From positions 1 to 24,775 of the IMG/VR virus record IMGVR_UViG_2541047936_000008: a DNA stretch of 24,775 bases, one strand, 5' to 3'. Numbering within the stretch: the first letter of the stretch is position 1; every line of letters starts with the position of its first letter. Shown here in pieces: positions 1-3,000 of this stretch. The DNA comes from a virus (lineage: Duplodnaviria; Heunggongvirae; Uroviricota; Caudoviricetes). Position numbers: made by a program.

Positions 1-3000
1 ATGTGGGTCAATAAGTATATTGACGATTGCACTGATGAGGATTTAAACGATCGTGACTTTATTGCATCAGTTGTTGACCGGGCTATTTTTCATTTCGCGA
101 TTAATAGTATATGTAATCCTGGGGATAATAAAGATGCAATGCCCATTGAACAATGTACTTTTGATGTAGAAACTAAGAATGACCTTCCCTCCACGGTTCA
201 GCTATTTTATGAGGAATCTAAGGATAATGAACCTTTAGCGAATATACATTTTCAAGCAATAGGTTCTGGTTTTTTAACGTTTGTTAATGCCTGCCAGGAA
301 CATGATGACAACAGCTTAAAATTATTTGCTTCGCTGTTAATTTCACTTTCATATTCTAGTGCCTACGCAGATTTATCAGAAACAGTGTATATTAATGAAA
401 ATAATGAGAGCTACCTGAAAGCTCAGTTTGAAAAATTATCTCAACGTGATATGAAGAAGTACCTGGGAGAGATGAAGCGTCTGGCTGATGGGGGAGAAAT
501 GAATTTTGATGGCTATCTGGATAAGATGTCACATCTGGTGAATGAAGGAACGCTCGATCCTGATATTTTAAGCAAAATGCGAGATGCTGCACCACAATTA
601 ATTAGCTTCGCGAAGTCGTTTGACCCAACCTCAAAGGAAGAGATTAAAATACTTACAGACACTTCTAAATTAATTTATGATTTGTTCGGGGTTAAATCGG
701 AGAAATAATATGTGAAGTTCTTCGATAGTATGGAAGGCATTATATAAAAGGACCCAATATTTATTGGGTTCTTTTTTCTCTATCAATGCTATTAGCAGGG
801 AGATATATCACCAGAGTTTAATGTGTGATTTTTTATTTATCGTCGAACCTGGATTGTTTATCATTGGCCTTAACAAAGTTAACGGCTAATAAGATTATTT
901 CCATCACTTCGTGAGAGCTTCATGCCTTGAGAGGATCTCAATTTTCTTTTGCAATGAGACAGGCGCTTCCTGTTGTTATGGTATAGTACCCCGCTATTGA
1001 GCCTCCTGAATAGTGATGCTGAATAACATAACCCCATGATATATCGATAAAATAATCTCTACATTTGAAAATGCACGGTAATTCTGAAATGCAAAAAATC
1101 AACCAAACCAGCGCAATGCCTGAAAAAACTGACGTTCACTGGAGTGGTCGGTTTAGCGTTGCACCAATGCTCGATAGGATGTACCGTTTTTGAAAAACAA
1201 GTAGTTATACACTTTGTGGGAGCCTATTGGGAACCCGGTGTTTTCATTTCAAGGTGTAATCCATGCGGGGCATCAGAATGAGATATAATGAGATTTTTAG
1301 TGTTCCGCTTGAGAGTCTATGATGCTTACCCTAGACGAGATAGGTCAATCTGTACGTAACAATATCCAGTTGATTATTGATCATGTCGGCTTACCTCTTG
1401 CTGTTGGTCCGCTCAGTGATGATGATTACAAGATTCTGTGTGGTGGCTATGGTGAGCTTGAATGGGACTATGCGTTAAGCACCTATGGCAACTCCAGAGA
1501 AAAGTATGAGTTCTGCATAAAACTTGTTCAGCAAGGTCGGGTTCAGGGAATACCATCAGGAGCAGCAATTTGTGTTTATGGGGTTGAAGAAAACATCTTT
1601 CGTATCCATATGATCGAAAGGTTTTCTAGAGAAGATGAATCTCACCCATTGAAAGGGCGCATGGTTTTACTCACTCTTATGAGTGCTTTTATATTTTGTA
1701 AAGCTGTTGAATGTAAAGTTGTCCACATTGTAGAGCCAGTACCAGAACTGGTGCAGTATTACGAGTCTTTTGGTTTCCGCATGGAACAGTGCGGTTATGT
1801 GATGTCTGCAGTCATTGATGAGCTGCAGGATATCTTTCTTAAATTTGCTCAGTAGGTATAGACGAGAAGGGTCTACAAATTGTAGGATACCCGTCCAGAT
1901 TACCTTAAAGGTACATCTATGGCAGTCGTTTTGTGCTTAAACTACTAAGAAACGATGTCACCAATCGACATGATCGATTGGCATAAGTTAGCTAAACAAG
2001 CTAGCTTTAAAGAGAGGGTTAGAGACGCCTTTACTGTCTCGGGAGTTTTCTATGAAAGATCAAAAAGCAACCAAGCCACAGGTTAAGTTCGACACAATGA
2101 AAGCATTCGCAGGTATGGGTGCTGCTGTTGAAGTTCTGATGAAGGCTGCTCCTAATGCGTTCACTCACGCTACTGTCTCTGGTAAAGAGCAGCAGGGTAA
2201 GCTTCGTCGTCGCAAAGCAGCATGATCATAGCTGGTGCTTTTTGAAAACCCGCCTTTAGGCGGGTTTTTTCTTTAGTGATGTTCTTTGCCCTTCTGTTTG
2301 CCTGTTCTGACCTGTTCCCACTCGATACGTCCTTCTTCTCGTCTTTTGTCTATGTATTCCGCAAGATCTTGAATATTGATGCAACGTTTTGCTTTTTGTG
2401 ATGTGCCGATGCGATATGTTGGAACGGGCAACTTACAAGCGTTTGCTTTTGCTTCTGCCGTGGCTGGACTCATACCAAAGTATTTTTGACTAACTGCTGA
2501 GAGTTCAATGTTTAGGGTATTGAATTCAGCCATCAGTAAAAACAAGGTATTCATATCATTTCTCCATCATAACCGGCTGCACCCGGTGAGTTACTTATTC
2601 ATTTCAATAATATTATTTTCTATCATTGATTTATTTAAAACCAAAGAAGGAGCAAGATGGTTGTCTATTTTAAATAATGCATAACTTTTAAACCGTTGGT
2701 GATATCCGTAACCAATAAGGATGCTAGAAAAATCTCTTAATTTATCTTCTTTAAGAACATGAAAATGAAATGGGTTGTCGCCATTTATGGACAATGAAGC
2801 ATCTATTATGCAGTATTTCTCTCCGTTGTCATTTGCATAGAAAAAAATATAAGACATTCTGTTTGTTAAGACAATGCCATTAAATTTTATTATGTCTGGA
2901 ATTATTTTGTTTTTCATATTTGGTGCCACATGTTTATTTTCAGAAATACATTTGATTTCATCTCCAGATGTCGTGATTATATAAAAATGAAACTTATCAG

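Follow-up and report, generated by a model that had tools for sequence, protein, structure and literature searches.

The window analysed here is a stretch of 24,775 nucleotides (nt), positions 1 to 24,775 of the IMG/VR virus record IMGVR_UViG_2541047936_000008 (Caudoviricetes), in which a dusA-integrated lambdoid prophage remnant is flanked by E. coli chromosome. Directly inside the left attachment (att) site of the prophage lie two genes on the same strand, designated ORF178 and ORF57 for open reading frames (ORFs) of 178 and 57 amino acids (aa), with an intergenic leader between them and a terminator behind them (Table 1). The segment from 1244 to 2275 constitutes a self-contained moron of the prophage, with the attachment site on one side and the excisionase gene on the other. 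Many E. coli prophages share the left 1.7 kb at 99-100% identity, and so does mEp460, a plaque-forming lambdoid phage in which the gene order is dinI(-), int(-), attP, gp23(+), gp24(+), xis(-), exo(-). The phage copy of the cassette, with gp23 equivalent to ORF178 and gp24 to ORF57, was identical to that in the window. The cargo begins at about 1244, immediately after the phage arm of attL, and the insert was found to be replaced in genomes that share the backbone, mEp460 and the window carrying the ORF178 cassette while phages SKA5 and Lys8385Vzw carry a Panacea cassette in its stead, which is the behavior by which a moron is recognized.

A previous reading of the sequence alone had placed a GNAT-like ORF at this position, followed by an overlooked 57-aa protein with a Lys/Arg-rich tail, a good ribosome-binding site and a strong terminator. 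Each of these elements was located in the window, the att block and ORF178 in the described order and ORF57 behind its GGGAG sequence. ORF57 had been described as missed by the ORF track; the protein is listed as hypothetical both in RefSeq (WP_000654815.1) and in mEp460 (gp24).

Loci were gathered with the ORF178 family from species-representative genomes, from IMG/VR and by exact-protein look-ups. Of the loci in which an ORF178 relative was detectable, 104 of 104 had a full-length ORF57 relative 93-240 bp downstream on the same strand. Inspection showed that the three loci of greatest divergence (Shewanella, 42% identity; Brenneria, 46%; phage Eeyore, 42%) are paired as well, the partner being an ORF of 53-61 aa with the motifs of the ORF57 family and a terminal Ala-Ala. 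In total, an ORF57-like gene stood just downstream of the ORF178 relative in 107 of 107 loci, at no fewer than five prophage positions, and ORF178 without ORF57 was not seen in the loci examined. The genomic settings differed widely. In the dusA prophages of E. coli and Salmonella, where the pair was conserved, the cassette was situated between attP and xis; in Photorhabdus it lay in the middle of a myovirus tail module, in Edwardsiella upstream of a holin gene, in phage Eeyore downstream of a Q-like antiterminator gene and upstream of a holin gene, and in Shewanella at the edge of a prophage. Since the two genes remain paired across such different settings, hitch-hiking cannot explain their linkage. 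The possibility that ORF57 is a plain backbone gene unrelated to ORF178 was likewise ruled out by the pairing in settings away from the att site.

Among 5,426 complete E. coli genomes, ORF178 was present in 358 and ORF57 in 562. Strains of O157:H7 and O111 were among the E. coli that carry ORF178, and the gene was also found in Salmonella, Enterobacter, Photorhabdus and other genera. In 208 E. coli genomes, as in phages SKA5 and Lys8385Vzw, the slot was occupied by a gene with a Panacea (SocA/DUF4065) domain and an overlapping gene of 139 aa. The Panacea cassette occupied positions 2473-3461 of the SKA5 (L003) and Lys8385Vzw (L004) loci with ORF57 following after 40 bp, the slot spanning from the att arm to the ribosome-binding site of ORF57. 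The left boundary of the swap was found at about 1243 and the right one at 2039-2045, so that both the enzyme gene and the leader are replaced in the Panacea version. The dependence on ORF57 is one-way: ORF178 is obligately linked to ORF57, while the reverse does not hold. The two proteins also differed in conservation, the identity among Enterobacteriaceae being 89-96% for ORF57 vs 66-74% for ORF178.

RefSeq and all of the homologues start ORF178 at its second methionine (1322). The protein had no match in Pfam, NCBIfam or PADLOC, even at E ≤ 1, and PHROGs assigned it only to the unnamed family phrog_4350. A profile search of the PDB with the ORF178 family returned no GNAT, only chance matches to repeat proteins. 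The close family comprised 51 clusters, nearly all from Enterobacterales, and the wider family, obtained by a profile search of 1.84 billion representatives, comprised 99. When 69 family members were scanned against Pfam, one marginal match to Acetyltransf_1 was obtained (E 0.0058). The AlphaFold 2 (AF2) model of ORF178, calculated from a 37-sequence alignment, had a predicted local distance difference test (pLDDT) score of 92.6 and a predicted template modelling (pTM) score of 0.89. Its elements followed the GNAT order (strand 1, helices 1-2, strands 2-4, helix 3, strand 5, helix 4, strand 6), with an additional helix at each terminus and a 13-residue loop preceding helix 3. The model allows ORF178 to be placed with confidence in the GNAT superfamily, by fold alone. 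Foldseek located the model near many solved GNATs, none of which was singled out. The neighbors included RimI, Naa20/40/50 and GCN5, many of the top matches were SpeG, aminoglycoside acetyltransferases (AAC) were present, and the viral structure library BFVD returned generic GNATs only. The proposal of a GNAT-like protein was thus upheld by the predicted structure and its neighbors, while the profile searches of Pfam and NCBIfam revealed no GNAT or toxin family to which ORF178 could be assigned.

The conserved residues of ORF178, as predicted from the alignments, fit an active enzyme: 1) Tyr148 is invariant in a YxxFGF motif and aligns with Tyr115 of RimI, 2) Asp or Glu is conserved at position 139, at the end of strand 5, and Glu100 in strand 4 is invariant. 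The putative coenzyme A (CoA) pyrophosphate loop, H109-P-L-K-G113-R-M115, has a nearly invariant HPLxG. In an hhalign comparison of the family with E. coli RimI, for which a sequence identical to 5isv_A was used, only the YESFGF segment was aligned, weakly, with YESLGF of RimI (probability 1.7%). Motif A of the GNATs, located between strand 4 and helix 3, has the pattern Q/R-x-x-G-x-G/A. The loop of ORF178 is longer than usual and has a single Gly, and because HPLKGRM is atypical in this way, we infer rather than assert that ORF178 uses an acyl-CoA. The degenerate motif, together with the near failure of Pfam to recognize the family, would suit a GNAT fold that has lost acyl-CoA binding and acts by binding, as a decoy or a scaffold with ORF57. 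However, the invariant Tyr148, the acidic residue at 139 and the near-invariant HPLxG have been retained despite divergence to about 20% identity, a pattern like that of an active site, and a non-catalytic ORF178 is considered quite improbable.

ORF178 is an acidic protein with a net charge of -10 and an isoelectric point (pI) of 4.8, and the charge ranged from -8 to -18 in 29 members of the family. Acetyltransferases of cationic small molecules tend to be acidic, and morons frequently bear genes that benefit the host. ORF178 might then serve in lysogenic conversion by detoxifying or modifying a cationic small molecule, and the neighboring ORF57 would have a role apart from it; candidate substrates are polyamines, aminoglycosides and aminoacyl-nucleotide antibiotics. 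The acidic character would suit such a substrate, and the Foldseek matches to SpeG, a spermidine acetyltransferase, and to aminoglycoside acetyltransferases point in the same direction. However, the structural scores gave neither SpeG nor AAC an edge over other GNATs, and no match was found among the NCBIfam models, the library with which NCBI names bacterial proteins. Moreover, a separate role for ORF57 leaves unexplained why the two genes are paired in every one of the 107 loci, at all of those positions and down to 42% identity. This explanation was judged improbable.

ORF57 starts 6 nt downstream of GGGAG. Its homologues formed 48 clusters with 68-98% identity, and comparison with 8 diverged cassettes gave a ratio of nonsynonymous to synonymous substitution rates (dN/dS) of 0.05-0.20 at a dS of 0.33-0.55. 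On both counts, ORF57 is a genuine gene under purifying selection. The protein matched nothing in Pfam, NCBIfam or PADLOC, and PHROGs gave an unnamed family only. The family profile found only chance matches to repeat proteins among the PDB sequences, and no DNA-binding domain was detectable. When modelled alone (AF2), ORF57 had a pLDDT of 61 with short helices within residues 15-37, a low-confidence model that suggests a largely disordered protein. The net charge is +8 and the pI 10.5. The charge of the small-protein family ranged from +2 to +9, so that the charges of the enzyme and its partner are opposite family-wide. The family motifs are FDT, a central F..MGAAVE.L.KAAP and a basic tail, (Q/H)G(K/R)..., and the C-terminal residue is always Ala (AA or VA); in the window the protein ends in ...GKLRRRKAA.

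The space between the two genes contains palindromes that the sequence-only reading had taken for regulator-binding sites. These palindromes are hairpins of the ORF57 leader RNA. The first was found at exactly the position described, 1961-1981 (hairpin C), while the second required new coordinates, as TTAGCTAA (1988-1995) and AGCTAGCT (1999-2006) are the arms of a single hairpin, D. The structures are more than chance would give: in 196 bp, some 0.02 perfect inverted repeats of 8 bp with a short loop would be expected by a rough estimate. An alignment was made of 25 distinct spacer versions from Enterobacteriaceae, in which the 24 specified pairs were paired in 87.6% of the cells, as against 17-42% when the partners were slid by 1-3 columns. 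Changes on both sides occurred in 7 pairs of the leader (39 cells), and the observed covariation score was reached in 0 of 500 shuffles. In hairpin D alone, five pairs had changed on both sides (as in GTTAGC/GCTAGC, AGTAGT/ACTACT and GGATAG/CTATCC), 16 cells of hairpin C had changed from C-G to U-G or from A-U to G-U, and an A-to-G change in hairpin E also yields a G-U pair. Since the changes to G-U preserve pairing in the + strand RNA but break the symmetry of the DNA palindrome and become mismatches on the - strand, the palindromes are best taken as RNA structures and not as operators. The + strand RNA from 1894 to 2070 folded with -51.7 kcal/mol (z = -4.25; 0 of 200 shuffles as stable), whereas the z of the - strand was -1.74. 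An antisense RNA from the - strand was ruled out by this weaker folding and by the G-U pairs that turn into mismatches. An ORF of 43 aa (1955-2086) was not taken as a gene; it overlaps the beginning of ORF57 as well as hairpins C, D and E. Rfam 15 gave no match at E ≤ 1 within 1856-2051, the only hits being sub-threshold terminator look-alikes (2174-2277) and one inside ORF178. A published small RNA, sRNA-17 of E. coli K1 RS218, is modulated by ArcA and derives from an mEp460-like prophage (PMC7719688). The intergenic leader was ruled out as this RNA, which maps to approximately 4953-5145 (exact 21-mer at 4959-4979). This places sRNA-17 outside the cassette, in the early-left part of the prophage.

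The palindromes had been taken for operators of a protein regulator, and the possibility had been raised that ORF178 is a toxin of the TacT/AtaT kind that acetylates aminoacyl-tRNA. The stem of hairpin C is well conserved in sequence too, so that a protein contact at this place is conceivable. The covariation of the arms and their use of G-U pairs stand against the operators, and two further observations against the toxin. The clade of GNAT toxins is defined by antitoxin partners with DUF1778 or, in one clade, DUF4065 (PMC9177977), and no gene of either kind is adjacent to ORF178. The toxicity of TacT requires positively charged patches for docking of the tRNA (PMC4942678), whereas ORF178 is acidic when its net charge is taken as a proxy for its surface. 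A tRNA-acetylating toxin with operators at this locus is consequently very unlikely. The observation that no antitoxin gene is evident upstream was correct, since the att site and no conserved ORF were found there. ORF57, a constant downstream companion that had been overlooked as such, is the natural candidate for the missing partner.

Most of the cassettes, although from unrelated settings, had a TAnAAT-type hexamer about 30-35 nt upstream of the start of ORF178, and in several settings the terminator of the preceding gene was found about 110-160 nt upstream of that start. A strict sigma-70 scan gave no full promoter match in the cassette and did not pick up the TATAAT at 1284-1289. No terminator-like site was detected by a terminator scan between the dusA 5' fragment and ORF178 in the window, so that read-through in the lysogen from the displaced host dusA promoter would be plausible. 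Some of the cassettes from outside E. coli (L088, L090, L099, L014, L010 and L007) had a conserved box, CTTACA(C/T)ATCTTTTACAAC, located upstream of the -10 element and about 70-90 nt before the start of the ORF178 homologue; it is degenerate or absent in the window and might serve either for binding of a regulator or as an additional promoter.

Both hexamers upstream of ORF57 were retained in the 12 enterobacterial cassettes shown, with TAGGAT or TACGAT as the -10 element, a spacing of 17-18 nt and a variable spacer sequence. In many cassettes the TAG of the -35-like hexamer is the stop codon of ORF178. The motif agrees with the consensus at 8 of 12 positions, and the TAGACG/TA(G/C)GAT pair may be described as promoter-like. 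A matching terminator followed ORF57 in most cassettes regardless of the setting, the Photorhabdus loci excepted. From these putative signals the cassette looks like an autonomous unit. The 3' untranslated sequence after ORF57, ATAGCTGGTGCTTTTTGAAAACCCGCC (2226-2250), was kept in the enterobacterial cassettes shown, in different settings, and exceeds what the terminator stem needs.

Table 1. Location of the cassette features, the att sites and the adjacent genes in the window.
Feature	Position	Strand	Remarks
dusA 5' fragment	1071-1175	+	host gene, displaced, 35 codons; RefSeq: partial/truncated tRNA-dihydrouridine synthase
attL junction block ATGCTCGA	1167-1174		located by aligning the window to attP of mEp460 and SKA5
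Phage arm of attL	1176-1243		common to phages with different cargo; mEp460/SKA5/window alignment near-identical to ~1243, then diverges
-10-like TATAAT for ORF178	1284-1289	+	~33 nt upstream of start; poor -35
ORF178	1319-1855	+	178 aa; probable start 1322 (177 aa); mEp460 gp23; phrog_4350
Promoter-like motif for ORF57	1859-1888	+	TAGACG (1859-1864), 18-nt spacer, TAGGAT (1883-1888); conserved hexamers
Structured ORF57 leader	1897-2040	+	five hairpins, ~155 nt; folding, covariation
Hairpin A	1897-1918	+	RNAalifold
Hairpin B	~1920-1960	+	leader fold
Hairpin C	1961-1968/1974-1981	+	CCAATCGA-N5-TCGATTGG; 100% complementary; RNAalifold; first palindrome
Hairpin D	1985-1993/1999-2007	+	AAGTTAGCT/AGCTAGCTT; 9 bp, one T-G pair; RNAalifold; second palindrome
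Hairpin E	2022-2040	+	GAGAC/GTCTC; kept in 25/25; abuts Shine-Dalgarno
Shine-Dalgarno GGGAG	2041-2045	+	
ORF57	2052-2225	+	57 aa; mEp460 gp24; phrog_2741
Intrinsic terminator	2244-2275		closes cassette; 11-bp perfect G+C-rich stem (2244-2269) and T run; head-to-head with convergent excisionase gene
Excisionase gene, PrtN family	2273-2554	-	Pfam PF11112, E 1.7e-22; phrog_1300; mEp460 gp25
Integrase gene	22176-23273	-	365 aa; adjoins attR
dusA with phage-supplied 5' end	23362-24399		attR side

The window contains the entire dusA element, with a length of approximately 22.3 kb, and in the flanking chromosome on the left a DUF2713 gene ends at 708. The attR copy of the 8-mer ATGCTCGA was located at 23458-23465, near the integrase gene and the remainder of dusA; the phage-borne dusA 5' end and the integrase gene precede it and the remaining part of dusA follows. 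The same layout has been described for dusA-specific integrases (PMC4482086). The element carries CI- and CII-like regulators and an O-like replication gene, followed directly by genes for the tape measure, the baseplate and the tail fibres. Among the element ORFs of at least 90 aa, none for head, terminase or lysis functions was seen, and for this reason the element is regarded as a prophage remnant. A GGGAACC repeat occurred once on the attL side (1229-1235) and three times on the attR side (23294-23328; one copy inverted), with 7 copies in the window vs 2.5 expected. The repeats fit putative arm-type binding sites of the integrase. The excisionase gene, convergent with ORF57, opens the phage backbone on the right-hand side of the cassette. 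Between it and a yfdQ-like gene is an ORF of 277 aa (2591-3424, - strand; phrog_14996) with a G+C content of only 29-31%, at a place where mEp460 carries exo and other genes. This ORF had no significant match in Pfam and none in PADLOC, and it looks like a second cargo gene of no assigned family function.

The reading that we tentatively favor, at less than even odds, treats the cassette as an autonomous moron whose enzyme is bound and held in check by the small basic protein, in the manner of an antitoxin. ORF57 would bind the acidic substrate face of ORF178 and hold the enzyme inactive. It would turn over rapidly, its RRRKAA end being similar to tails recognized by ClpX, and its own promoter would have to keep supplying it in excess; while the prophage is integrated, transcription from the displaced host dusA promoter may also run into ORF178. 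If the supply of ORF57 stopped, through transcription shut-off caused by a phage or through loss of the prophage, the enzyme would be freed to acylate a basic cellular or phage target, and the outcome would be growth arrest, exclusion or addiction. Several observations, taken together, support restraint of this kind, 1) the conserved Tyr148 and acidic residue at 139, 2) the pairing, 3) the one-way dependence, 4) the opposite charges, 5) the putative disorder of the partner, which is under purifying selection, 6) the cassette's putative expression signals and the covarying hairpins of the leader and 7) the use of the slot by sister phages for a cassette of the toxin-antitoxin type.

Six points weigh against restraint by ORF57. 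1) ORF57 is more conserved than the enzyme, the reverse of what is found for most toxin-antitoxin (TA) pairs, which suggests that ORF57 also contacts a conserved host component. 2) ORF57 persists beside the unrelated Panacea cassette in about 200 genomes and may have a function of its own. 3) ORF57 contains no detectable DNA-binding domain, and the autoregulation typical of type II modules is absent with it. 4) Motif A of the enzyme is degenerate, HPLKGRM with its single Gly. 5) The more distant cassettes, those of Photorhabdus and Edwardsiella, have shorter or weakly folding spacers and the structured leader is confined to Enterobacteriaceae, so that the leader is a clade-specific elaboration and not a universal part of the cassette. 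6) The C-terminal tags recognized by ClpX include ...ALAA, ...GVAA and RRKKAI (PMC8138137), and the RRRKAA end of ORF57 is like these tails by resemblance alone.

The first two of these points would be expected if ORF57 were instead the substrate of the enzyme. In that case, ORF178 would acetylate the Lys-rich ends or the N-terminus of ORF57, an effector acting on a conserved host component, and acetylation would switch its charge, activity or stability. The strict pairing and the opposite charges are compatible with this arrangement, conservation of ORF57 beyond that of the enzyme is expected with a conserved host target, ORF57 persists without ORF178, and the structural neighbors include protein N-terminal and lysine acetyltransferases (RimI, Naa20/40/50, GCN5). 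However, ORF57 matches no family or solved structure and its action on a host target is conjectural, and if ORF57 acts alone it is unexplained why the enzyme never occurs without it. An enzyme-substrate relation is possible but rather unlikely. Restraint by ORF57 could also be taken a step further, to a new class of two-component prophage module consisting of an acidic GNAT-fold enzyme missed by Pfam and a disordered, protease-labile inhibitor controlled by a promoter and a five-hairpin leader, which would travel among unrelated temperate phages as an abortive-infection or addiction device and be directed at a protein or a cationic metabolite rather than tRNA. This extended proposal is, on the present evidence, doubtful.

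The cassette is common, ORF178 being found in 358 of 5,426 complete E. coli genomes, yet both of its proteins are annotated as hypothetical, and a literature search by the protein accessions and PHROGs of ORF178 and ORF57 found no paper. The universal pairing, the occurrence of ORF57 with the Panacea alternative and the five-hairpin leader RNA are new here. If the cassette is a toxin-antitoxin-like or defence module, it adds a GNAT effector with a non-tRNA target and a small partner without a domain; if the enzyme modifies a small molecule, it provides an example of lysogenic conversion. The leader would represent a new family of cis-acting RNA, and the alternation with the Panacea cassette marks the att-proximal slot of the dusA phages as a cargo hotspot.

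The module falls outside the GNAT/DUF1778 family; in its proposed working it comes closest to toxin-first type II TA modules and to morons. Like the GNAT/DUF1778 modules TacAT, AtaRT, KacAT and ItaRT, it consists of two genes on mobile DNA, one for a GNAT-fold protein some 160-180 aa long and the other for a small partner, and a tyrosine is conserved at the position of the catalytic one (Tyr148 here, Tyr140 in TacT; PMC4942678). It differs from them in that there is no sequence similarity, the partner is downstream with its own putative promoter and leader and has neither a ribbon-helix-helix (RHH)/DUF1778 nor a DUF4065 domain, and the enzyme is acidic whereas theirs have positive tRNA-binding patches. 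ORF178 resembles RimI in its YESFGF, as compared with YESLGF, but is set apart from RimI, Naa20/40/50, GCN5 and SpeG by an identity of only 9-17%, the extra terminal helices, the 13-residue loop and a non-canonical P-loop.

Toxin-first TA modules with an extra promoter for the antitoxin include mqsRA, higBA, hicAB and rnlAB. The cassette shares with these the larger gene in first position, the small partner in second and a promoter-like motif at the end of the first gene; their antitoxins, however, are folded, bind DNA and repress the operon, while ORF57 has no domain and is preceded by a long structured leader. The lambda bor and lom genes are morons of lambdoid phages, autonomous inserts made up of a promoter, a gene and a terminator. 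As with morons of this type, the cassette occurs in mEp460 and gives way to other cargo in sister phages of the same backbone, it comes with -10-like elements and a terminator, and it is transcribed in opposition to the early-left operon. Unlike them, it has two genes, a putative internal promoter and an RNA leader, and it moves among att-proximal, late-region and tail-module sites. The Panacea antitoxin cassettes (PanAT) encode unrelated proteins, the Panacea gene coming first with the overlapping 139-aa gene and no leader RNA, but they occupy the same slot between the att arm and ORF57, which indicates that this slot is used for cargo of the toxin-antitoxin type.

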